64,000 nt of DNA from Candidatus Tayloriibacteriota bacterium (GCA_903839695.1 CAIMDI010000010.1:6703-70702); one strand, 5' to 3'. Counted from the first letter of the stretch, positions 5,082 to 17,129 are shown. Translations and numbers: made by a program. Notes: generated by a model from the sequence alone, not told the origin.

Positions 5082-5681
5082 ATGCAAGAAACAGAACCAA
5101 TATATTTTACAAAATTTAGGGAAGGTATAGATAGGAGATTTGACTCTATGGACAAGAGATTCGATTCTATGGATAGAAAGTTTGAGGCTGTAGACTTAAA
5201 GTTTATTGCGATGGATAAAAAGTTTGACGCAATAGATAAAAGGTTTGACTCTATGGACAAAAAGTTTGATGCGATAGACTTAAGATTTGTTGCGATGGAC
5301 AAAAAGTTCGATGCTATAGACTTAAGATTTGCTGCGATGGATAAAAAGTTTGACGCAATAGACTTAAGATTTGACTCAATATACAAGAGGTTTGACTCTA
5401 TGGATAAAAAGTTTGATGCCATAGATAAAAGGTTTGTTAATATGGACAAAAAGTTTGATGCTATTGATGTTAAATTCGTTACTATAGATGAGAATTTCAA
5501 AAATATCAGTTCTCAACTTACTGACATAAGAAATATGCAGGACATTCATTTTGAGGCTATTGGCGGGGTAAAAATCCAAATAACAGAGATTATTGAAGCA
5601 TTGGATAGAAAGGCAGATGTTGCTGATGTAAAAGCATTAGAATATCGAACTAAAAAGCTTGAGTCTCTAGCTTTTGCATAA
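5082..5681 (+). CDS. coiled-coil protein built from ~17 near-identical heptads (DKKFDAI / DLRFVAM)
   Basis: Perfect 7-residue periodicity with F and I/M at the a/d positions. The ends are non-repetitive (C-terminal ...ALEYRTKKLESLAFA). Orientation matches the flanking genes. An antisense ORF at 5075..5500 is also open, so strand choice is uncertain. Confidence 0.5.
   Translation: MQETEPIYFTKFREGIDRRFDSMDKRFDSMDRKFEAVDLKFIAMDKKFDAIDKRFDSMDKKFDAIDLRFVAMDKKFDAIDLRFAAMDKKFDAIDLRFDSIYKRFDSMDKKFDAIDKRFVNMDKKFDAIDVKFVTIDENFKNISSQLTDIRNMQDIHFEAIGGVKIQITEIIEALDRKADVADVKALEYRTKKLESLAFA
5130..5500. repeat. tandem 21-bp (heptad-encoding) repeat tract
   Basis: The units atggataaaaagtttgacgcaatagac and ttaagatttgttgcgatggacaaaaag recur ~17 times with small variations. 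Confidence 0.8.
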
Positions 5682-6981: not shown

Positions 6982-7689
6982 ATGAACAAACAAGCAAACA
7001 ACCCAATGATCGATAGTATGTTTAAAGCAGGTGCTCATTTTGGTTTTTCTAAGACACGTAGACACCCTAGTGTTGCCCCTTATATTTTTGGTATTAAAAA
7101 TAAAGTAGAAATATTTGATCTAGAAAAAACAAGTGATTTATTAGAAAAAGCAAAGGTTTACGTTGCAACTTTAGGAAGAGAGGGAAAGTCTATACTTTTT
7201 GTCGGAGGCAAAAGTGAGGCAAGAAATGCTACAAAGATAGGTGCTTTATCTATAAACATGCCTTATGTAGACGGAAGATGGATTGGTGGTACTCTTACAA
7301 ACTTTGTTCAAATCAGAAAGCGAGTAGAAAAGCTAGAAAGACTAACTTCAGAAAAGGAAAAGGGAGAATTAACAAAATACACAAAAAAGGAGAGATTATT
7401 GATCGACCGTGAGATTGCAAATCTAGAGAGATTCTTTTCTGGAGTAGTTTCAATGAAAGAACTTCCAAAAGCTATTTTTGTTGTAGATCCAAAGAAAGAA
7501 AAAACTGCTGTTAAAGAAGCACAAGATATGGGTATTGTAGTTGTATCTATTGCTGGTTCAGATTGCAATATAAAATCAATAGACTATCCAATTGTCGGAA
7601 ATGATTCATCTCAAACAAGTATTCAGTACCTAACCAACGAAATCACTAAAGCATATTTTGACGCCAAGTCTGAGGTAAAAAAAATATAG
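6982..7689 (+). CDS. rpsB: 30S ribosomal protein S2
   Basis: MIDSMFKAGAHFGFSKTRRHPSVAPYIFGIKNKVEIFDLEKT is the S2 N-terminal signature. The gene lies upstream of tsf. Confidence 0.9.
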   Translation: MNKQANNPMIDSMFKAGAHFGFSKTRRHPSVAPYIFGIKNKVEIFDLEKTSDLLEKAKVYVATLGREGKSILFVGGKSEARNATKIGALSINMPYVDGRWIGGTLTNFVQIRKRVEKLERLTSEKEKGELTKYTKKERLLIDREIANLERFFSGVVSMKELPKAIFVVDPKKEKTAVKEAQDMGIVVVSIAGSDCNIKSIDYPIVGNDSSQTSIQYLTNEITKAYFDAKSEVKKI

Positions 7690-7761: not shown

Positions 7762-8355
7762 ATGTCTACAATTACTACCGAACAAGTAAAAGAATTACGA
7801 GATTCAACTGGCATATCAGTAATGCAATGTAAAAAAGCTTTAGAAGAGGCTGGTGGTGATATGGAAAAAGCTAAAGTCATTCTTAGAAAAAAGAGTGGAG
7901 AATTAGCTTCAAAAAAAAGCGATAGAACATTCCATTCTGGCACCATACAGGCATATTCACATTCAACTGGAAAAGTTGCTACTTTAGTTGAGCTTGTTTG
8001 CGAAACTGATTTCGTTTCTGGAAACGATGAGTTCAAGGCTCTTGCGCGAGATATTGCAATGCATATTACTGCATCAAATCCAAAATTTCTAAAGAAAGAA
8101 GATATTACAGAAGAAGCTAGAAATACCGCAAAGGAAGTATTCATGAAGGAGGTTGAAGGAAAGCCAAAGGAAATGCAAGATAAGATTCTTGAAGGTAAAC
8201 TTGCTACATATTTTGGAGAAATGGTTCTTTTAAATCAACCATTTATTAAAAACCCAGAATTAACAATAGAAGGACTAATACAAGCTGCTGTACAAAAGTT
8301 TGGTGAAAAGATTGAAGTTTCAAGATTCATCAGATACGGCGTGCTTGAACAATAA
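7762..8355 (+). CDS. tsf: elongation factor Ts
   Basis: TTEQVKELRDSTGISVMQCKKALEEAGGDMEKAKVILRKK is the UBA-like EF-Ts N-terminus. Conserved rpsB-tsf arrangement. Confidence 0.9.
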   Translation: MSTITTEQVKELRDSTGISVMQCKKALEEAGGDMEKAKVILRKKSGELASKKSDRTFHSGTIQAYSHSTGKVATLVELVCETDFVSGNDEFKALARDIAMHITASNPKFLKKEDITEEARNTAKEVFMKEVEGKPKEMQDKILEGKLATYFGEMVLLNQPFIKNPELTIEGLIQAAVQKFGEKIEVSRFIRYGVLEQ

Positions 8356-8356
8356 A

Positions 8357-8770
8357 ATGTCTACTTTTTTAGATCCAATTACCATATCTTTCTACATTTC
8401 TTTTTTAGGTATAATCAGCTTATTCGGCCTGAAGATTTTTGAAATTAAGTCTGGAAAGAAAAATTGGGTTTCTAAAATAGCAGGCAAGACAGATTCAACA
8501 ATTAGAAATTCTTATATATTTTTAAGAAAAACATTTTCCCATATAAATAAGAAGAACGCTATTGCACTTATTCAATGGATTGCGTATTATATCTTATCGT
8601 GGGCAAGACGAGCTTACATATGGGCTCATAGAAAGGCTCATGCCCATCCACCATCAAAAATGGTTATAGATATGGTGAGAGGTAGAGGAGAAATAAAAAG
8701 AAATGGAGGAGTATCATTTTTTTTGAAAAGTATCTCTTCAGATGATATAGTAGAAGAAGCAAAGAAATAA
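8357..8770 (+). CDS. hypothetical membrane protein
   Basis: 137-aa ORF starting 1 nt after the tsf stop. N-terminal TM segment ITISFYISFLGIISLFGL. No known domain. Confidence 0.35.
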   Translation: MSTFLDPITISFYISFLGIISLFGLKIFEIKSGKKNWVSKIAGKTDSTIRNSYIFLRKTFSHINKKNAIALIQWIAYYILSWARRAYIWAHRKAHAHPPSKMVIDMVRGRGEIKRNGGVSFFLKSISSDDIVEEAKK

Positions 8771-8781
8771 TGTTTAAATAG

Positions 8782-8794
8782 TGCCACCTTAGCT
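8782..8794 (+). repeat. 13-nt copy of the tRNA-Thr 5' end (TGCCACCTTAGCT). Not a complete tRNA.
   Basis: It exactly matches 8861-8873. The downstream sequence does not form a D/anticodon/T arm and has no 3' acceptor complement. Confidence 0.4.
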
Positions 8795-8861
8795 GTCTTG
8801 GTAGGTATACAACGTAAGGTGAGAATAATGACCCAAATGTGTTTTTGAAAAATAAATATTT

Positions 8862-8937
8862 GCCACCTTAGCTCAGTTGGTAGAGCAACGCTTTTGTAAA
8901 GCGAAGGTCCCCAGTTCAAGTCTGGGAGGTGGCTCCA
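8862..8937 (+). tRNA. tRNA-Thr (anticodon UGU), with encoded CCA
   Basis: Manual cloverleaf: acceptor GCCACCT/AGGTGGC, D-arm GCTC-AGTTGGTA-GAGC, anticodon loop TT-TGT-AA, T-arm CCCAG-TTCAAGT-CTGGG, discriminator T, CCA. Confidence 0.85.
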
Positions 8938-8977: not shown

Positions 8978-8987
8978 TTATTAGTAT

Positions 8988-9722
8988 ATGAAAAATCAAA
9001 AAGGCCATTTACATCCATTAACTCAATTTACCAGAGAAGTGGTAAATATTTTTGCTGATATGGGATTCGTAGTTGCTGAAGGTCCAGAACTTGAAAAAGA
9101 ATTTTACAATTTTGATGCATTAAATATTCCTGCAGATCATCCATCTCGAGATATGCAAGATACATTTTGGATAAAAATGGACTCACAAAAAGATAATGTA
9201 GAAAAAATTGATTCCAGAATTCGTCCTGTTATGCGAACACAAACTTCTGCTGTCCAAGTAAGGTTTTTGGAAAAACATAAAGACAATTTACCTTGTGCAA
9301 TAGTTGTGCCAGGTAAGGTTTTTAGAAATGAGGCAACAGACGCTACACATGAAGCTCAATTCTCCCAATTAGAAGCATTATACGTTGATAAAGATGTATC
9401 AATGGGACATTTGAAAGGTGTTATAGAACATTTCTTAAAGAAAATGTATGGAGATGGAGTTGAAATACGTTTTAGACCAAGTTTTTTTCCATTCGTTGAA
9501 CCGGGAGTAGAAGTAGATATGAAATTCAATGGTAAATGGTTGGAAATGGGAGGCGCTGGTATGGTACATCCAAATGTATTTAAAACTGTTGGTATAGATT
9601 CAGAAGTGTGGAAAGGATTTGCTTTTGGTTTTGGTATAGATCGACTTGTAATGATGAAGCACAATATTACAGACATAAGATTATTATACAGCGGTGATTT
9701 AAGATTTATTAATCAATTCTAA
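8988..9722 (+). CDS. pheS: phenylalanine--tRNA ligase alpha subunit (short form, 244 aa)
   Basis: Class II aaRS motifs: HPSRDMQDTFW, FRPSFFPFVEPGVEVD, GAGMVHPNV, GFAFGFGIDRLVMM. Confidence 0.9.
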   Translation: MKNQKGHLHPLTQFTREVVNIFADMGFVVAEGPELEKEFYNFDALNIPADHPSRDMQDTFWIKMDSQKDNVEKIDSRIRPVMRTQTSAVQVRFLEKHKDNLPCAIVVPGKVFRNEATDATHEAQFSQLEALYVDKDVSMGHLKGVIEHFLKKMYGDGVEIRFRPSFFPFVEPGVEVDMKFNGKWLEMGGAGMVHPNVFKTVGIDSEVWKGFAFGFGIDRLVMMKHNITDIRLLYSGDLRFINQF

Positions 9723-9731
9723 TTAAAACAA

Positions 9732-9980
9732 ATGAAAAATATATACAAAAAGATAATCGCATCACTTTTTTTTCTGGTAATATTTTTATTTGGATCACAC
9801 ATTGTTTCTGCTGAAGAAATATCTTATTCAAATGATTTAACTGTCGGTAGTGTAGGAGCTGATATAAAAAATAATCAAATTACAGCAGGGAATTATATAG
9901 TAAAGGTTTGTGTCGCAGGTACTAATGAATGTGATCAAAGCGATTCAGCGTTTATTATAAGTAATTCTGTTGTGTACTAA
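9732..9980 (+). CDS. small secreted Cys-containing hypothetical protein
   Basis: Signal peptide MKNIYKKIIASLFFLVIFLFGSHIVSA. 82 aa. First gene of a tightly coupled 4-gene block. Confidence 0.4.
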   Translation: MKNIYKKIIASLFFLVIFLFGSHIVSAEEISYSNDLTVGSVGADIKNNQITAGNYIVKVCVAGTNECDQSDSAFIISNSVVY

Positions 9981-9984
9981 TAAA

Positions 9985-10203
9985 ATGAAGCCTGGAATAT
10001 ACAAACATTCAAAAAAGGGAAATGAATACAAGGTTCATTTTATTGCAAAGAATTCAGAGACTTTGGAGGATATGGTCGTATATGAAGCGCTTTATGAAAA
10101 TGATATATCAAAGTATTGGGTGAGGCCAGTAAGTATGTTTGAGGAAATTGTAGAAATTAATGGAGAAAAAGTACCAAGATTTATTTGGATAAGAGAAAAA
10201 TAG
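9985..10203 (+). CDS. DUF1653-family small protein
   Basis: MKPGIYKHSKKGNEYKVHFIAKNSETLEDMVVYEALYEND..WVRPVSMFEEIVEINGEKVPRF follows the DUF1653 pattern from memory (KPGxYxHxKGNxY...SET.E..VVY.ALY...WVRP..MF). The ATG is 4 nt after the previous stop. Confidence 0.55.
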   Translation: MKPGIYKHSKKGNEYKVHFIAKNSETLEDMVVYEALYENDISKYWVRPVSMFEEIVEINGEKVPRFIWIREK

Positions 10204-10204
10204 G

Positions 10205-11263
10205 ATGAAAAAAAGTAATTCAAAATTAAAAAAACTAATAATTCGCAATAGCACAGCAGAATTCCTGATGTTTACTTCTGATGCAAGAAGTAATGGTATT
10301 GAAGTTCGTTTTGAAAATGAAAATCTTTGGTTGACACAAAAGCTCATTGCTGAACTTTTTGAGGTTAGTGTTCCAACAATAAATGAGCATCTTAAAACTA
10401 TTTTTCATTCAAATGAATTAGATATTAAAACAACTATTAGGAAATTCCTAATAGTTCATAAAGAAGGAAGTAGATCAGTTTCTAGAGACATTGAACATTA
10501 TAGCCTTGAAGCAATTATTTCTATTGGTTATCGTGTAAACTCTGAAAAAGCGATGGCATTTCGCCGTTGGGCTACTGAGGTATTGAAGACATTTTCAGTG
10601 CGTGGATATGTACTTGATCACAACAGATTGGAGAATGGAACATATCTTGGTCAAAATTATTATGACTCGCTTATATTAGAAATTCGTGAAATACGAAATA
10701 GCGAAAGGAAGTTTTATCAAAAAATTACTGATATTTACACAACAGCGTTAGATTATGATGTCAATTCTCCATTAACACAAAGTTTTTTTAAAAATGTACA
10801 AAATAAATTACATTATGCAATACATGGGAATACTGCTCCAGAAGTTATATTAAAAAGAGTAAATGCAAAAAAAGAAAATATGGGATTAACAAGTTGGGAG
10901 AAGTCGCCAAAAGGAAAGATTTTGAAAACTGATGTTGTAATTGCAAAGAATTATCTAGATACTAAAGAATTGAAATCATTAGACCGTATTGTTTCAATGT
11001 ATTTGGATTATGCTGAAGATCAAGCAGAACAACAAATTCCCATGACAATGAATGACTGGGTAGAAAGATTGGATGCATTTCTTAAATTTAATAGAAAAGA
11101 GGTGTTAAATAATCCTGGAAAAGTTTCCGCAGAAATAGCAAAAAGCTTTGCTGAAAGTGAATTTGAAAAATATAGAATGGTTCAAGACAGGCTTTTTGAA
11201 AGTGATTTTGATAGATTTGTTTATGATATAAGGGGAATGGCAGAAAATAATAAAAAAATATAA
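10205..11263 (+). CDS. RhuM-family (virulence protein RhuM) DNA-binding protein
   Basis: N-terminal EVRFENENLWLTQKLIAELFEVSVPTINEHLKTIF, then ISIGYRVNSEKAMAFRRWATEVL, LDHNRLENG and ILEIREIRNSERKFYQKITDIYTTALDYD. These match conserved blocks of the RhuM family (PF13310) as recalled. The stop overlaps the next start (TAATG). Confidence 0.6.
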   Translation: MKKSNSKLKKLIIRNSTAEFLMFTSDARSNGIEVRFENENLWLTQKLIAELFEVSVPTINEHLKTIFHSNELDIKTTIRKFLIVHKEGSRSVSRDIEHYSLEAIISIGYRVNSEKAMAFRRWATEVLKTFSVRGYVLDHNRLENGTYLGQNYYDSLILEIREIRNSERKFYQKITDIYTTALDYDVNSPLTQSFFKNVQNKLHYAIHGNTAPEVILKRVNAKKENMGLTSWEKSPKGKILKTDVVIAKNYLDTKELKSLDRIVSMYLDYAEDQAEQQIPMTMNDWVERLDAFLKFNRKEVLNNPGKVSAEIAKSFAESEFEKYRMVQDRLFESDFDRFVYDIRGMAENNKKI

Positions 11264-13029
11264 TGAAAAAAGATATTAAAATTTCATTTAGAGTTCTGAA
11301 AGAACAAATACTTTATTTCAAAAAGGAAATGATTGTTTTGATTGTGCTTACTATTTTTGGATCACTTGGAAATGGAATAGTTCCTGTCGTCGCAGGTAAG
11401 TTTTTTGATTCACTAATACTAAGCTCCCCTTCAGTAATTTTTGGTATTTTATTGACACCATTTGTATTGTTAGGAGTTTGGTTTTTCATTCAAATATTAA
11501 TAGCTTTGATTGAGAAAGAAATTAGTTATTCTAGGAATTTTGTTGGATTTAGTGTAAGAATTAATTATGTAAAGGGTATATACGATCGTTTGATAAATTT
11601 ACCGATGTCTTTTCATAAAGGAACAAAGTATGGAGAGATTACATCTAATGTAAACGAATCTGGTTGGGGAGTGCAAGTTATTATTGGAAATATTTTAATT
11701 GGTATTGTTCCACAATTATTAACTATTGTAATTGCATTTATTATTATTTTTTCTTTAAATGCATTACTTGCAATTGTGATCCTTGTTGCTGTAGTTATCT
11801 ATACTATAGTTTTAAGTATAACCAGCAAGAAATTGCATGAAATTCAGACAGTAATTTATCAAAGTTGGGAGCAATCTTTTGGATATAGCTGGGATACAAT
11901 TACAAATATTCAAGCAGTCAAACATGCAGTGACAGAGGATTATGAGTCAAAGAATATTGCCGATAGATTTTTAAAGCATATAATTTTGCCATTTTCAAAA
12001 ATTTATAAGTTAGAGACATCACTTGATTTGTTACAAAGAATAGTTATTACTTTTACTCAACTTATAATATTTTTCTCATCAATTTATTTGGTTAAAAGTG
12101 GGTCAATGACTATCGGAGAATTATTTGCATTCAATGCATACACAGCTTTAATATTTGGTCCTTTTACAATACTAAATAAAGATATTGGTGATTTACGTAA
12201 TTCGATTATTAAAATAGTAGCTACAGAAAAAATGATTGGTGAAGGTTATGAAATATACAATCCTGTTGATGAAGTTATAATTCCAGAAATTAAAGGTAGC
12301 GTTGAATTTAAGAATGTTTCTTTTTATTATAATAAAGAAAATCTTGTTCTTAAAAATATTTCATTTAAAGTTGAACCAGGTCAAATAATAGCCTTGGTTG
12401 GTGAATCTGGTGTTGGAAAAAGTACTCTTATTGAACTTCTTGCTGGATATCATTTTGCAAATGAGGGTGATGTGCTGATTGATGGTATTGATATTAAAAA
12501 AATAGGATTAAAATTCCTACGTAAACAAATAGCTACTGTGCCTCAGGAAGTAATTTTATTTAATGATACAATTAAGCATAATATTTCCTATGGTAATTTT
12601 GATTCTATAGATGAACAGATTGAAGAAGCCTCAAAAAAAGCTCATGCATACGATTTTATAATGAAATTTCCAAATACTTGGCAACAAATAGTAGGAGAAA
12701 GGGGAGTAAAACTTTCTGTGGGGCAAAAACAAAGAGTTGCTATTGCCAGAGCTATTTTACGAAATCCTAAAATATTGATATTAGATGAACCAACATCTGC
12801 TCTTGATGCGGGATCTGAAAATATTATTACAGGGTCTCTGGAGGAATTAATGAAAAGCAAGACAACATTTATTATTGCTCATCGTTTGAGTACTGTAAGA
12901 AAAGCTGATAAAATTCTAGTGTTTAAAGATGGTTCTATTGTAGAATCAGGAAATCATTCAGAATTATTAAAAATCGAGAATGGTGAATACAAGAGATTAT
13001 ACGATTTACAGGTTGGATTACATAACTAG
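11263..13029 (+). CDS. ABC exporter, fused permease-ATPase (MsbA/multidrug type)
   Basis: Six-helix TMD, then Walker A GESGVGKSTL, signature LSVGQKQR, Walker B ILILDEPTSALD and H-loop IIAHRLS. Confidence 0.8.
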   Translation: MKKDIKISFRVLKEQILYFKKEMIVLIVLTIFGSLGNGIVPVVAGKFFDSLILSSPSVIFGILLTPFVLLGVWFFIQILIALIEKEISYSRNFVGFSVRINYVKGIYDRLINLPMSFHKGTKYGEITSNVNESGWGVQVIIGNILIGIVPQLLTIVIAFIIIFSLNALLAIVILVAVVIYTIVLSITSKKLHEIQTVIYQSWEQSFGYSWDTITNIQAVKHAVTEDYESKNIADRFLKHIILPFSKIYKLETSLDLLQRIVITFTQLIIFFSSIYLVKSGSMTIGELFAFNAYTALIFGPFTILNKDIGDLRNSIIKIVATEKMIGEGYEIYNPVDEVIIPEIKGSVEFKNVSFYYNKENLVLKNISFKVEPGQIIALVGESGVGKSTLIELLAGYHFANEGDVLIDGIDIKKIGLKFLRKQIATVPQEVILFNDTIKHNISYGNFDSIDEQIEEASKKAHAYDFIMKFPNTWQQIVGERGVKLSVGQKQRVAIARAILRNPKILILDEPTSALDAGSENIITGSLEELMKSKTTFIIAHRLSTVRKADKILVFKDGSIVESGNHSELLKIENGEYKRLYDLQVGLHN

Positions 13030-13043
13030 ATCAAAAAACTAAA

Positions 13044-14996
13044 ATGAAAATATTAAAAAGTTGGTTACAAAAACATATAGTAGAAACATTACCTAGTGAT
13101 GAACAAATCGAGCAAGCTTTGATTCTAAAATCTTCGGAAGTTGAGGGAATTGAGAAAATCAAATTAACATTTGATAATAAAGTTATTGACGATACTGTTT
13201 TTGATATTAAAGTTTTGCCTGACCGCGCTCACTATATGTTGTCACACAGAGGAGTAGCATATGATCTTTGTGCTGTCTTAAATCTAAATTTAAAACAAGA
13301 TGAAGAAATTTTACCTATAAAAGGAGAACATATTAAAGTAAATATTGAAACAGAATTGTGTAGTAGATATACTGCAACATCTATTACTAACATTGCCAAT
13401 TCATCATCACCTGAATGGCTCAAAAATGCCCTAGAGGCTGTAGGAGCTAGGTCAATCAGTGGAATCGTCGATGCAACAAATTATGCAATGTTTGACACGG
13501 GACAGCCTTTGCATGCTTTTGATGCTGACAAAGTATCTGGATCACTAACTGTAAGAATGGCCAAAGAAGGTGAAGAAATTCAATTATTACCAGAAAGAAT
13601 TTTTATAGAAGGGAAATGGGAAGAAAAAGAAAGATTTTTAAAATTAAATTCAAGTGATATGGTGATTGCAGACAAAAAAGGACCACTTGCAATAGCTGGC
13701 GTTAAAGGGGGTTTAAGAGCAATAGTTGATGAGAATACCAAAAATATTATTTTAGAATCCGCTTGTTTCAATCCCGTAAGTATTCGAAGAACTTCTACAA
13801 AATATAATATTAGAAATGATTCTTCAAAAAGATTTGAAAATGAAATCACACCGTATCTGACTGATTGGGGAGTGTCTTGTTTTATAAAAATAATAAAGGA
13901 AATATCACCAAAATTAGAAATTGGTTTTATCACAGATGTAAGTAATAAATTACCTGAGCCTTTTATAGTTTCATTAACTCATAAGAAAATTGAATCAATA
14001 TTAAATTTTACTATTTCTGAAAAAAGAGTTTTAAGTATTTTGGAAAAACTAGATTGTGTTATTGGTGTTTCTGATGGTTTGTATAGTGTAACTCCGCCAT
14101 TTGAGCGACTTGATTTGAGAATTGCAGAGGACATTATAGATGAAATCGGTAGAATAGAAGGTTTAGATAAGATTAAAAGTATTATCCCTAATGCTAAAAA
14201 TAAACACGAATTTTCAAAGGAATTTTTAATTGCTGAAAAGGTTAAAGATTTCTTTTTGAGCAAAGAATTTTCAGAAATTCAAACTAGATCATTTGCTGAC
14301 AAAGGTGATATTGAAGTTTCTTACCCTATGGCTTCTGATAAAGGCTTTCTAAGAGTGAATCTTTACAATGGAGTTATTGAATCTATGAATTTGTCTATAA
14401 GTCAGGCACCTTTGCTTGGTCTTGATAAGATTATGATATTTGAGATTGGAAAAACTTTTCCCAAAAGTGGAGAGCAATTAGACCTTTGTTTTTCAATTAA
14501 TTATACAAAAAAAATAAAAAATAAAGATCAAATTATAAAAGACGAACTTGAAGGATTAATAAAAGAATTAGAATCTGATTTTGGAGTAAAATTGTTCTCA
14601 AATATAAATCAAAATTTTGCTTATATAAGTAATCTTGATAAATTGGATGTAAAATTGAACTTTAAATCAATAAAAATAGAGAAAGGTTCAGATTCCGTAT
14701 TCAAACCATTTTCTAATGAGCCATTTATGGTGAGGGATATAGCGCTATTTGTTGATGGTTCTGTTGGCGCAGAAAATGTACAAGAAGTCATAAAGAGCTC
14801 AATAAACTCAATCACAAAAGACCTTTTGGTTAAGGGTCCAGACCTATTTGATCAATTCGAAAAAGAAGGGAAAAAGTCATTAGCATTTAGAATGATATTT
14901 CAAGCAAATGATAGAACATTAACAGATTTAGAAGTAAATAGTTTTATGGAAAAAGTGTATTTTTCCGTAAAAGAAAAAGGTTGGCAGGTTAGATAA
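13044..14996 (+). CDS. pheT: phenylalanine--tRNA ligase beta subunit (short, 650 aa)
   Basis: N-terminal MKILKSWLQKHIVETLPSDEQIEQALILKSSEVEGIEK (the PheT SWL.. start), B3/4 and B5 regions, C-terminal anticodon-binding-like domain. Partner of pheS. Confidence 0.8.
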   Translation: MKILKSWLQKHIVETLPSDEQIEQALILKSSEVEGIEKIKLTFDNKVIDDTVFDIKVLPDRAHYMLSHRGVAYDLCAVLNLNLKQDEEILPIKGEHIKVNIETELCSRYTATSITNIANSSSPEWLKNALEAVGARSISGIVDATNYAMFDTGQPLHAFDADKVSGSLTVRMAKEGEEIQLLPERIFIEGKWEEKERFLKLNSSDMVIADKKGPLAIAGVKGGLRAIVDENTKNIILESACFNPVSIRRTSTKYNIRNDSSKRFENEITPYLTDWGVSCFIKIIKEISPKLEIGFITDVSNKLPEPFIVSLTHKKIESILNFTISEKRVLSILEKLDCVIGVSDGLYSVTPPFERLDLRIAEDIIDEIGRIEGLDKIKSIIPNAKNKHEFSKEFLIAEKVKDFFLSKEFSEIQTRSFADKGDIEVSYPMASDKGFLRVNLYNGVIESMNLSISQAPLLGLDKIMIFEIGKTFPKSGEQLDLCFSINYTKKIKNKDQIIKDELEGLIKELESDFGVKLFSNINQNFAYISNLDKLDVKLNFKSIKIEKGSDSVFKPFSNEPFMVRDIALFVDGSVGAENVQEVIKSSINSITKDLLVKGPDLFDQFEKEGKKSLAFRMIFQANDRTLTDLEVNSFMEKVYFSVKEKGWQVR

Positions 14997-15056: not shown

Positions 15057-17129
15057 ATGGCAAAAGAAGACAAAAAGAAAGATAGTTATGGAGCTGATTC
15101 CATACAAGTCCTAGAGGGTCTAGAACCCGTAAGAAAGCGTCCTGGAATGTATATCGGTACCACAGGTCCAGATGGTCTTCATCATCTTATTACTGAAATT
15201 TTTGATAACTCCAGAGATGAAGCTATGGGTGGTTTTGCCAATCATATCGAAGTCTCTCTTTTGCCAAAGAACAGAATTAGAGTTGTAGATAATGGTAGAG
15301 GCATTCCAGTAGACATTCACAAATCCACAAAAGTCTCAGCTCTAGAAACCATTATGACAGTTTTGCATGCTGGAGGTAAATTCGGAGGTGAAGATTCAGG
15401 ATACAAAGTTTCCGGAGGTTTGCACGGCGTGGGTGCATCTGTGGTAAATGCTCTTTCTATATATGCTCAAGTTTGGGTTCATAAAGATGGAGGTATTTAT
15501 ACACAAGAATATTCTCAAGGAAAGAAAAAGGCAGCAGTAAAGAAAATTGCCTCTACAAAATTTCACGGTACTATAGTTGCTTTCGAGCCAGATGTTGAAA
15601 TATTCAAGGAAATCAAATTTGATTTTCCTAGAGTAGTAAATTCATTACGCCAGCAAGCATATTTGGTTCCCGCTTTACGTATTACGGTTATTGATGCCAG
15701 AGAAGCTGTTGATTTAAAATTAGATCCTGAAACAACATATATAAAAGATCTAAACCTACAGGTTCCCTCACAAACATTTTTCTTTGAAAATGGTCTTACT
15801 TCACTTGTAAAATTCAATAATCAAATTCTCAAACCAATACACAAAAACATTTTCTATGTTGAGAAAAAAGCTGAGGGAGTAGAATCTGTAGAAGTGGCAT
15901 TACAATATGCAGACGACATATCTTCTCGTATTCTTCCATTTGCCAATAATATCTACAATCCAGAAGGAGGAACACATGTCACAGGCTTTAAAACATCACT
16001 TACTAGAAGTTTAAATACCTATGCAAAGAAAAATAATCTCATAAAGGAGGGTGAAGATAGTTTTACAGGTGACGATGTTCTAGAGGGACTTACTGCAGTT
16101 ATTTCCGTTAAATTACGTGAAATTCAGTTTGAAGGTCAGACAAAAGCCAAATTGGGTTCAGTAGAAGCGCAAGGAGCGGTGGCTACAGTTTTCGGAGAAG
16201 CATTCTCAGCTTTCCTAGAAGAAAATCCTGAAGATGCAAGGGCAATGATTATGAAAGTTGTTCTTGCTATGAAAGCTCGAAAGGCAGCAAAAGCAGCTAA
16301 GGATAGTGTCCTTAGAAAGGGTGCATTGGAGGGCATGACATTACCTGGTAAGCTCGCTGACTGTCAGACAAATGTCGCATCTGAATCAGAATTATTTATT
16401 GTGGAGGGAGATTCCGCAGGTGGAACAGCAAAAACTGGTAGAGATCGCAAAACCCAAGCCATCCTTCCTCTGAGAGGAAAAATTCTAAACATAGAAAGAG
16501 CAAGATTGGATCGTATGCTTGGATCTGAACAAATTAAAAATCTTGTATTAGCTTTCGGAACTGCTATTGGAGACACATTTGATATTTCTAAACTTCGTTA
16601 TCACAAAATTATTCTAGCAACAGATGCCGACGTTGACGGAGCGCATATTCGTACACTTATCCTTACATTACTTTATAGATATTTTAAGCCATTGATTGAA
16701 GGAGGATATGTCTATATTGCACATCCACCATTATATAAAGTAAAAAGAGGTAAAGAAGTATTGTATTTCTATTCTGAAGAAGAAAAAATAAAAGCTTTAG
16801 GAAAAGAAATAGAAAGTATTAGCGAAGTTGATTCTGCACAAGAGTCAGAACTACTAGAACGAGCTGGTGCAGAGGTAGAGGAGCAGGGAGAAGTTACGGA
16901 AGGGAAGAAACAGAAGATTTTAATTCAAAGATATAAGGGTCTCGGAGAAATGAATGCAGAAGAATTGTGGGAGACAACAATGGATCCAGAAAAGCGTATA
17001 TTAAAACAAGTAAATATAGGTGACGCTCAAGAAGCAGATAAAGTATTTGATATGCTTATGGGTACAGATGTTCCAAGTAGAAAGATGTTTATTCAGTCAA
17101 ATGCAAAGAAAGCAACAATAGATATTTAG
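15057..17129 (+). CDS. gyrB: DNA gyrase subunit B
   Basis: GHKL ATPase N-terminus (LEGLEPVRKRPGMYIGTTGPDGLHHL..EIFDNSRDEAMGG). TOPRIM region EGDSAGG. C-terminal QRYKGLGEMNAEELWETTMDP. Confidence 0.9.
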   Translation: MAKEDKKKDSYGADSIQVLEGLEPVRKRPGMYIGTTGPDGLHHLITEIFDNSRDEAMGGFANHIEVSLLPKNRIRVVDNGRGIPVDIHKSTKVSALETIMTVLHAGGKFGGEDSGYKVSGGLHGVGASVVNALSIYAQVWVHKDGGIYTQEYSQGKKKAAVKKIASTKFHGTIVAFEPDVEIFKEIKFDFPRVVNSLRQQAYLVPALRITVIDAREAVDLKLDPETTYIKDLNLQVPSQTFFFENGLTSLVKFNNQILKPIHKNIFYVEKKAEGVESVEVALQYADDISSRILPFANNIYNPEGGTHVTGFKTSLTRSLNTYAKKNNLIKEGEDSFTGDDVLEGLTAVISVKLREIQFEGQTKAKLGSVEAQGAVATVFGEAFSAFLEENPEDARAMIMKVVLAMKARKAAKAAKDSVLRKGALEGMTLPGKLADCQTNVASESELFIVEGDSAGGTAKTGRDRKTQAILPLRGKILNIERARLDRMLGSEQIKNLVLAFGTAIGDTFDISKLRYHKIILATDADVDGAHIRTLILTLLYRYFKPLIEGGYVYIAHPPLYKVKRGKEVLYFYSEEEKIKALGKEIESISEVDSAQESELLERAGAEVEEQGEVTEGKKQKILIQRYKGLGEMNAEELWETTMDPEKRILKQVNIGDAQEADKVFDMLMGTDVPSRKMFIQSNAKKATIDI

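Follow-up and report, generated by a model that had tools for sequence, protein, structure and literature searches.

The 3.3-kb interval between pheS and pheT in this compact Paceibacteria (Taylorbacteria-like) genome is probably a mosaic of four independent genes at a variable junction, and not one system. The genes encode an 82-residue protein with a signal peptide (sp82), a DUF1653 protein, a RhuM-family protein and a fused ABC exporter. They are not regarded as one system because related genomes have each of them without the others. The best reading of the sequence is that the interval is a variable slot whose present occupant is a stand-alone RhuM defence gene, probably co-transcribed with pheST. 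RhuM is the only one of the four genes that, from sequence comparison, looks newly acquired.

Gene layout and composition of the interval

ORF calls and Pfam matches confirm that four close-packed ORFs lie between pheS and pheT in the window (the whole 64,000-nucleotide stretch that was analysed), as the initial annotation had proposed (Table 1). Read directly from the sequence, the gaps are 9 nt between pheS and sp82, 4 nt between sp82 and DUF1653, 1 nt between DUF1653 and RhuM and 14 nt between ABC and pheT, while the RhuM stop and the ABC start overlap by 1 nt (TAATG). The three junctions within the gene group read exactly as had been claimed, but such tight spacing is the norm genome-wide: tsf is followed by the next gene after 4 nt, and pheS–pheT spacings of 4–7 nt are found in relatives. 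The neighbours of the interval are pheS, pheT and gyrB, with a tRNA-Thr gene upstream of pheS. Compared with the TIGR00468 model (NCBIfam profile match), the encoded PheS is missing ~66 residues at its N-terminus. The DUF1653 start is placed at the ATG at 9985, the mechanical ORF beginning at the TTG at 9970. No further copy of any of the four genes is found elsewhere in the window.

Table 1. Features of the pheS–pheT interval (window coordinates)
Feature	Position	Strand	Properties
pheS	8988-9722	+	244 aa, short form; PF01409 2.6e-93; TIGR00468 312 bits vs cutoff 237
sp82 (82-aa signal-peptide ORF)	9732-9980	+	BLASTP to both ends of 566-aa relative
DUF1653 protein	9985-10203	+	72 aa; PF07866 4.6e-21
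RhuM-family protein	10205-11263	+	352 aa; PF13310 1.7e-106; PADLOC PDC-S05
Palindrome in RhuM, 25 nt	10432-10456	.	AACTATTAGGAAATTCCTAATAGTT; encodes TIRKFLIV
ABC exporter half-transporter, fused	11263-13029	+	588 aa; PF00664 + PF00005
Polymorphic site in ABC gene	11572	+	A>T; codon 104 AAG -> TAG in other assemblies
pheT	13044-14996	+	650 aa, short form; PF03483 (B3_4), PF03484 (B5), PF03147 (FDX-ACB); TIGR00472 2.2e-108

The four genes show no foreign composition, their GC (0.29–0.32) and GC3 (0.17–0.29) being close to those of pheS and pheT. Sites resembling promoters or terminators are as frequent as in shuffled sequence, there is no terminator between pheS and pheT, and Rfam finds only the tRNA-Thr. 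Since the interval genes have no recognisable promoter or terminator of their own, the pheS promoter probably drives their transcription, on through pheT. No integrase gene is present among the interval ORFs and Pfam matches, and neither a tRNA attachment site (the only tRNA being that upstream of pheS) nor a clear target duplication was found. An imperfect repeat of 25 nt (84%) flanks the RhuM ORF on both sides (10189-10213 and 11247-11271). The ABC gene contains a further copy of this kind, which suggests that the A-rich composition of stop/start junctions explains the flanking repeat; convincing flanking repeats were not found. One assembly of the same population (L004) has an alternative 5' junction at window position 9769, representing either a rearrangement or an assembly chimera.

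The interval in related genomes

Related loci holding both genes number 27 and represent 25 distinct species, with three loci copying others already counted. In 15 of the 27, pheS and pheT are 4–40 nt apart. This synteny comparison bears out the proposal that accessory genes were inserted within pheST; they are regarded as accessory to the operon because the interval contents are missing from many relatives. The two genes are adjacent in L010, L012, L013, L014, L015 and L028, and also in most of the distant relatives. On a neighbour-joining tree of pheT, which carries no support values, occupied and empty intervals are interspersed.

The occupied intervals differ in content. A 566-residue secreted protein followed by DUF1653 fills the interval in L018, L043 and L044, and a 686-residue secreted protein replaces the 566-residue form in L047 and L048. 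The secreted-protein gene is also directly upstream of DUF1653 and pheT in L011, where the contig ends before pheS. The ABC gene alone separates pheS from pheT in L040, DUF1653 and ABC precede pheT in L041, DUF1653, a NYN-domain gene and ABC fill the interval in L042, and DUF1653 with a KilA-N-domain gene does so in L045 and L046. The complete four-gene set is present in none of the related species examined. Conservation of the same genes in the pheST operon of relatives, which the initial annotation had named as evidence against an insertion, is thus found in part: DUF1653, the secreted protein and ABC are resident in the nearest relatives, while none of the related genomes recovered has RhuM at this position.

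The initial annotation had also read the four genes as one inserted cassette and as one functional system, and neither claim survives this comparison. Each gene is found without the others in relatives (L040, L041, L042, L045, the L018, L043, L047 and L011 group and, for RhuM, L037–L039), every sub-combination is seen, sp82 is a remnant and the ABC gene has a nonsense allele. A single mobile four-gene cassette was likewise rejected, as the full set recurs in none of the related species and the DNA homology between two RhuM loci stops ~15 nt outside the ORF. It is very improbable that the four genes are one co-inherited defence, abortive-infection or toxin-export module inserted whole into pheST. 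The ORFs are indeed contiguous and co-directional, with near-zero junctions, and RhuM is defence-associated; however, close packing is general in this genome, the full set recurs in no related species, and the ABC protein has neither a C39 peptidase domain nor any cargo-specific feature. In addition, the named RhuM homologues come from many phyla, whereas the named ABC and DUF1653 homologues are all from Patescibacteria.

The sp82 gene had been described as encoding a small secreted protein, a description that its relatives overturn. Its signal is of a plausible Sec type (MKNIYKKIIASLFFLVIFLFGSHIVSA/EE) and a Pfam search of the protein gives no match, but both of its ends match the surface protein of L018 (6078-7778) by BLASTP, residues 1–49 aligning with 1–47 and residues 41–76 with 530–565. 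The full-length relative of ~566 residues carries PG_binding_1, Kre9_KNH and PKD domains (Pfam), and a full-length counterpart of sp82 occupies the same position in L018, L043, L044, L047 and L048. It appears that sp82 arose by an in-frame internal deletion of ~480 codons from the gene of a 566-residue cell-surface protein, and it is probably functionless. A role for sp82 as cargo of the exporter was rejected in view of its Sec-type signal, where peptide-exporter cargo would have a double-glycine leader, and its origin as a gene remnant.

The DUF1653 assignment was checked by HMM search and holds, PF07866 scoring 75.4 bits against a cutoff of 23.5 with 60 of 62 model positions covered. The sole solved relative is PDB 3BE3, an 'uncharacterized protein' matched at E 2.4e-4, the literature offers one unrelated proteomics paper, and no PADLOC model matches. 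Orthologues with 72–85% identity are located in the pheS–pheT interval of L011, L018, L041, L043, L045 and L047, and one with 52% identity in L042; most have neither RhuM nor ABC beside them, and all named homologues are from Patescibacteria. The protein would be a small cytoplasmic one, vertically inherited in this clade between pheS and pheT. Judged from a dN/dS of ~0.08, a rough value as dS is saturated, DUF1653 is under purifying selection.

A type II toxin-antitoxin pair of DUF1653 and RhuM was rejected since their adjacency is not conserved, DUF1653 occurring without RhuM in 7 species and RhuM without DUF1653 in 2. A broader proposal, that DUF1653 is the fixed partner (antitoxin, regulator or insertion landmark) of a variable effector, draws on its small size and conservation and on the presence of a conflict-type gene right after it in three species (RhuM here, NYN in L042, KilA-N in L045). 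It is improbable nonetheless, because DUF1653 is followed directly by pheT in at least 4 species and by ABC in one, with no effector, DUF1653 is not found beside the nearest RhuM homologues, and no PADLOC model matches it. The mosaic reading would instead have a DUF1653-ABC slot that in other species is empty or holds a NYN- or KilA-N-domain gene.

The ABC protein has an MsbA-like arrangement of TMD and NBD, with the membrane domain right at the N-terminus and intact motifs (Walker A GESGVGKST, signature LSVGQ, Walker B ILILDEPTS, H-loop AHRLST). Its score lies under every NCBIfam equivalog cutoff. Assignment as a peptide or bacteriocin exporter was rejected (no C39 peptidase domain; TIGR01193 229.6 vs cutoff 523.85), as was that of an MsbA lipid A flippase (TIGR02203 366.3 bits vs cutoff 602), so that only a generic subfamily-B exporter is indicated. 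The three nearest orthologues located (L040, L041 and L042; 75–79% identity) are directly upstream of pheT, and all homologues with a source name belong to Patescibacteria lineages. The gene is probably the clade's own MsbA-like homodimeric exporter, found upstream of pheT in several relatives. In L004 and L005, assemblies of the same population, the substitution at 11572 creates a nonsense allele, and the gene is called as two ORFs of 103 and 474 residues there and in contig g8eMc_9H. That some members of the population carry a nonsense allele would suggest that the exporter is to a degree dispensable.

These observations also bear on a two-gene module of RhuM and ABC, in which the exporter might, for example, remove the RhuM product or give immunity. 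The TAATG overlap and the weak match of the NBD to PADLOC models with ABC-like ATPases are in its favour, but those matches cover the generic NBD only, the three nearest ABC orthologues are in place without RhuM, no ABC gene lies beside the RhuM homologues of 83% and 75% identity, and the strains with the nonsense allele retain an intact and identical RhuM. Such a module is exceedingly improbable.

The RhuM protein and its homologues

The RhuM assignment, checked in the same way, is well above threshold (PF13310, 355.6 bits, cutoff 33.7; residues 77–329). The protein also matches the PADLOC model PDLC04851 (PDC-S05) at 1.4e-148 over its full length (residues 9–344, 342-position model), and the family alignment shows that every invariant family residue is kept; R164, S166, E167, N249 and Y250 are among the positions that are invariant or nearly so. 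The predicted structure has an N-terminal winged-helix (wHTH) domain and a conserved all-helical C-terminal domain, with a pLDDT of 84 (54 from a shallow alignment, before more diverse sequences were included). No structural analogue of the C-terminal domain is present among the fold matches. A Fic/Doc toxin was rejected, there being no Fic/Doc Pfam match, no Fic structure among the fold matches, and no HxFx(D/E)GNGRxxR motif in the sequence or in the conserved family columns. Some homologues bear a 'Fic' label from their sources. RhuM gives no BLASTP match to the KilA-N protein of L045.

The nearest homologue, 83% identical over the aligned part, lies at the rpoB–rpoC junction of a sister species with 95% identity in rpoB. 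The pheS–pheT interval of this species probably has no RhuM, an assignment that leans partly on a shared sample series. The next homologue (75%) is solo in a different context, with hypothetical genes and S1 as neighbours, and the homologues in L037–L039 have no DUF1653 or ABC neighbours. Homologues with 65–70% identity carry source names of Deltaproteobacteria, Spirochaetia, Endomicrobiaceae, Xanthomonadaceae and a Methanosarcinaceae archaeon. The family is represented on 127 plasmid and 51 phage records, with some members beside type I R-M genes. Family members typically sit in defence islands or at type I R-M loci; this one does not, and the interval has no other PADLOC match or R-M gene. 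The unrelated neighbours of the two closest homologues suggest that RhuM has a single-gene character.

Anantharaman et al. 2013 (PMC3710099) predicted a toxin role for the RhuM family. One PDC-S05 member from a cold seep is reported to guard E. coli B against T7, T5 and T4, with a ~1000-fold lower plating efficiency in E. coli for T7 and T5 (bioRxiv 10.1101/2024.09.26.614923). The PDC-S05 match and this report of a protective family member uphold the initial view of RhuM as a mobile, defence-type gene. The proposal is that the RhuM gene moves horizontally and serves on its own in phage defence, here as a bare ORF in the DUF1653-ABC slot. By analogy with the family toxin prediction and the single-gene protection by PDC-S05, on which this lone-effector proposal is based, it probably acts alone. 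The modelled winged helix would probably bind nucleic acid, and the helical C-terminal domain would probably serve as the effector or toxin, stopping the phage from multiplying. Papers tying RhuM to the Candidate Phyla Radiation were not found in the literature.

The gain of RhuM here, as opposed to its loss elsewhere, is a direction assigned by parsimony over about a dozen species. A 22/25 copy of the RhuM palindrome is present just after DUF1653 in L042 and may be a RhuM remnant. This fragment hints that the presence of RhuM in the slot may be older than one recent insertion would suggest.

That only pheS and pheT are functional, the interval being decaying ballast and RhuM an inactive passenger, is quite improbable. 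It would fit the sp82 remnant, the ABC nonsense allele and the absence of various parts from relatives. Against it, RhuM, DUF1653 and ABC have dN/dS values of 0.08–0.12, similar to the 0.11 of pheT, though these are rough as dS is saturated, and RhuM keeps the invariant residues and is identical in sequence across 9 independent assemblies.

Relation to known systems and significance

In its ~350-residue size, its conserved residues and its stand-alone occurrence in changing contexts, the protein resembles the RhuM family (PF13310, COG3943)/PDC-S05. It differs from typical members in being a bare ORF between housekeeping-operon genes of Patescibacteria rather than part of a defence island or R-M locus. 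A winged helix at the N-terminus and a helical domain at the C-terminus are likewise combined in DdrC, a DNA-binding protein of Deinococcus radiodurans (PDB 7QVB, 8U0G). However, identity is 8–11%, the whole-chain TM-score is 0.2–0.3 and the C-terminal domains are not superposable, so that the likeness concerns one domain and is not family membership. The window ABC shares the ABC_membrane and ABC_tran architecture of MsbA-like type IV (subfamily B) exporters but falls well short of the curated cutoffs (MsbA 366 vs 602; bacteriocin exporter 230 vs 524).

Hot spots of variable and defence genes between conserved core genes have been described for enterobacterial and Pseudomonas genomes. Like them, the pheS–pheT slot is a fixed position holding different conflict-type genes by lineage (RhuM, NYN, KilA-N, GIY-YIG). 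Unlike them, it holds single promoter-less ORFs in an essential operon and not multi-gene islands. A wider reading, rather unlikely on present evidence, is that, in Paceibacteria, the junctions of essential gene pairs coupled in translation (pheS-pheT in this genome, rpoB-rpoC in the sister species) are favoured insertion points for conflict genes that arrive as single bare ORFs with no promoter (such as RhuM, NYN, KilA-N, GIY-YIG and HNH), inserted with ORF-level precision and using the transcription of the operon, and that DUF1653 may mark or assist the slot. If true, this would mean 'operon-embedded' immunity for bacteria whose genomes leave no room for defence islands.

The four-gene interval is largely ordinary, and RhuM here is one more member of the already known PDC-S05 kind. 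Synteny over a dozen relatives split an apparent system into four unrelated histories. In compact co-directional genomes such as those of Patescibacteria, contiguity and near-zero spacing do not amount to a functional module. The remaining interest is in a RhuM/PDC-S05 gene within pheST whose closest homologue is in rpoBC of a sister species, and in NYN and KilA-N genes in the same pheST slot. Should the placement prove to be more than a by-product of compactness, it would reveal a way in which ultra-small bacteria keep and exchange defence genes when they have no islands, and fixed core-gene junctions would provide a simple comparative handle for finding single-gene defences in uncultured lineages.

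Gene order around pheS and pheT

As the initial annotation described, four ORFs lie between pheS and pheT: an 82-aa signal-peptide ORF (sp82), a DUF1653 gene, a RhuM gene and a fused ABC exporter. Pfam backs every one of these assignments, and the junctions among the four are as claimed: gaps of 4 nt and 1 nt, then an overlap, TAATG. The genome is a low GC (33%) member of the Patescibacteria, and the best matches of pheT are from MAGs labelled Candidatus Taylorbacteria, Paceibacteria and Patescibacteria.

Coordinates and Pfam support of features around pheS and pheT (window positions)
Feature	Position	Strand	Pfam support
rpsB	6982-7689	+	
tsf	7762-8355	+	
small membrane protein	8357-8770	+	
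tRNA-Thr	8862-8937	+	
pheS	8988-9722	+	
sp82	9732-9980	+	
DUF1653	9985-10203	+	PF07866, 4.6e-21
RhuM	10205-11263	+	PF13310, 1.7e-106
ABC exporter	11263-13029	+	ABC_membrane + ABC_tran
pheT	13044-14996	+	
gyrB	15057-17129	+	

PheS (244 aa) and PheT (650 aa) are both short forms, with equal lengths in relatives. The alignment of PheS to TIGR00468 begins only at model position 67 and that of PheT to TIGR00472 only at position 156, so PheT is without the N-terminal part of the latter model. A 23-nt stretch at 8782-8804, lying 79 nt ahead of tRNA-Thr, copies the 5' half of that gene (87%) and may represent a pseudogene or a tRNA fragment. Farther upstream, two adjacent 113-nt segments (5157-5269 and 5283-5395; mutual identity ~80%), seen as secondary BLAST matches, form a tandem repeat within a 199-aa ORF at 5082-5681.

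Scanning with PheT, with each GTDB species represented by one genome, gave 27 loci, and protein look-ups gave more. Both pheS and pheT are present at 27 loci from 25 distinct species, with L044, L046 and L048 being copies of L043, L045 and L047. The two genes are 4-40 nt apart in 15 of these 27, so an insertion is borne out relative to many relatives. The membrane-protein/pheS and pheT/gyrB junctions are equally variable (45 to >6000 nt), and the rpsB/tsf/membrane-protein spacing is always tight in the compared loci. Since the junctions adjacent to pheST vary as much, accessory singletons among housekeeping genes are the local norm and no peculiarity of pheST. Upstream of pheS, an 87-aa and 204-aa gene pair is found in L010 (6229-7099), an HNH endonuclease in L043 (4100-4525) and pilin-like proteins of 281-284 aa in L015 and L028. 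The pheT gene itself has a ~590-nt insert (8984-9576) between two matching halves in L029, and in L047 (7226-9167) gene calling splits it into ORFs of 415 and 222 aa.

Gene content of the pheS-pheT interval in related loci
Loci	Gene order
L018, L043, L044 (pheT 74%)	pheS, 566-aa secreted protein, DUF1653, pheT
L047, L048	pheS, 686-aa secreted protein, DUF1653, pheT
L011	secreted protein, DUF1653, pheT (contig stops before pheS)
L040	pheS, ABC, pheT
L041	DUF1653, ABC, pheT
L042	pheS, DUF1653, NYN(+HAD-like) 324 aa, ABC, pheT
L045, L046	pheS, DUF1653, KilA-N 275 aa, pheT

In more distant genomes the interval holds a pilin-like protein (L016), a GIY-YIG nuclease (L031) or a PNPOx-like protein (L021), and empty and occupied intervals are intermixed in a PheT neighbour-joining tree (no support values). 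The four ORFs had been read as one cassette or system. The accessory insertion and the defence-type RhuM stand, but the single system does not, because relatives show every sub-combination and none of the related genomes compared has the full set. Judged from these sequences, the interval is best described as a mosaic at a variable junction, consisting of a decayed surface-protein gene, two genes resident in the lineage (DUF1653 and the MsbA-like exporter) and a mobile, stand-alone RhuM/PDC-S05 candidate defence gene.

Resident and decayed genes of the interval

Six related species have a DUF1653 orthologue (72-85% identity) at the same position, L042 has one that has diverged further (52%), and the dN/dS of the gene is ~0.08. 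DUF1653 resides stably in the pheS-pheT interval, usually without RhuM. The sole solved relative of DUF1653, 3BE3, is uncharacterised. Orthologues of the ABC exporter (75-79%) lie directly upstream of pheT, a 54% homologue follows mreB in another housekeeping context, and all homologues with a source name are from Patescibacteria lineages. The ATPase motifs are intact; the protein has no peptidase domain and scores below all specific NCBIfam cutoffs. Codon 104 (position 11572) is AAG in the window but TAG (A>T) in L004, L005 and contig g8eMc_9H, three further assemblies from this population; the sampled population thus carries a segregating nonsense allele, and the exporter therefore appears dispensable. 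Several contigs break at 11533-11583, which would fit the SNP bubble at 11572.

The sp82 product can be aligned with two stretches, residues 1-47 and 530-565, of the L018 566-aa protein, which has PG_binding_1, Kre9_KNH and PKD domains. Since both ends of this protein are matched, sp82 is what an in-frame deletion of the interior has left of a gene for a cell-surface protein, rather than a dedicated small secreted factor. Upstream of window 9769, inside the sp82 signal peptide, L004 has 457 nt (1-457) unrelated to the window, encoding minus-strand ABC ATPase fragments and a small ORF; L005 likewise starts exactly at 9769. The L004 junction may stem from a rearrangement in that strain or from chimeric assembly.

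Promoter-like and terminator-like matches are as frequent as in shuffled sequence, and no terminator was found between pheS and pheT; transcriptional read-through from pheS to pheT would be the simplest assumption. Near-zero ORF spacing is genome-wide and is thus no evidence of a functional link.

The RhuM gene and its carriage

RhuM matches PADLOC PDC-S05, a candidate single-gene phage defence, over its full length (1.4e-148). In E. coli, one PDC-S05 (RhuM-domain) gene is reported to have lowered the plating efficiency of T7 and T5 ~1000-fold and that of T4 ~10-fold (preprint 10.1101/2024.09.26.614923). RhuM had earlier been predicted to be a toxin domain and was noted to stand where Doc does in R-M/PrrC loci (Anantharaman et al. 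2013, PMC3710099). The predicted structure, built from a diverse alignment (pLDDT 84), has a conserved all-helical C-terminal domain, for which a PDB search gave no convincing analogue. RhuM has neither the fold nor the motif of Fic/Doc. Taken together, the PDC-S05 match, the toxin prediction and the model would make a DNA-binding sensor joined to a helical effector the most reasonable mechanism.

No relative recovered has a RhuM counterpart between pheS and pheT. In a sister species (L037 6001-8607), whose RpoB is 95% identical to that of the window and whose pheS-pheT interval is probably without RhuM, the nearest homologue (83% over the 96% that aligns) separates rpoB from rpoC; in the window these two genes are adjacent. 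DNA similarity of the two RhuM loci ends ~15 nt outside the ORF. Their synonymous divergence (1.4) exceeds that of rpoB (0.9), which argues against simple orthology, both values being near saturation. In L037, RhuM is followed by a 50-aa DUF6364/ribbon-helix-helix-like ORF and a 458-aa secreted protein, the latter with a C-terminal repeat resembling the sp82/566-aa family. The homologue next in identity (75%) stands alone in a different context again. Source names of those at 65-70% cover several phyla and include a Methanosarcinaceae archaeon, and 127 plasmid and 51 phage records carry relatives, in some cases adjoining type I R-M subunits.

A perfect 10+10 palindrome, AACTATTAGGAAATTCCTAATAGTT, at 10432-10456 inside RhuM recurs in L037. 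In L042, 6 nt past the DUF1653 stop, positions 969-993 match it at 22/25 and translate to NSTIGDFLIVRE, which resembles the RhuM consensus STIRKFLIVQKE; this segment is possibly a vestige of RhuM at that slot. At its stop/start junctions the RhuM ORF is flanked by the two copies (10189-10213 and 11247-11271) of an imperfect direct repeat of 25 nt (84%). As a similar copy occurs a third time, at 12490-12513, A-rich junction composition is a likelier explanation than target duplication.

The RhuM/PDC-S05 family is already known, and one more member is added here. What remains of interest is its position inside pheST in the window and inside rpoBC in the sister species, together with the use of the same pheST slot by NYN and KilA-N genes in other genomes. 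Such placement may mean that ultra-small genomes carry defence genes in a targeted, 'operon-embedded' manner, or only that these genomes offer nowhere else to insert.
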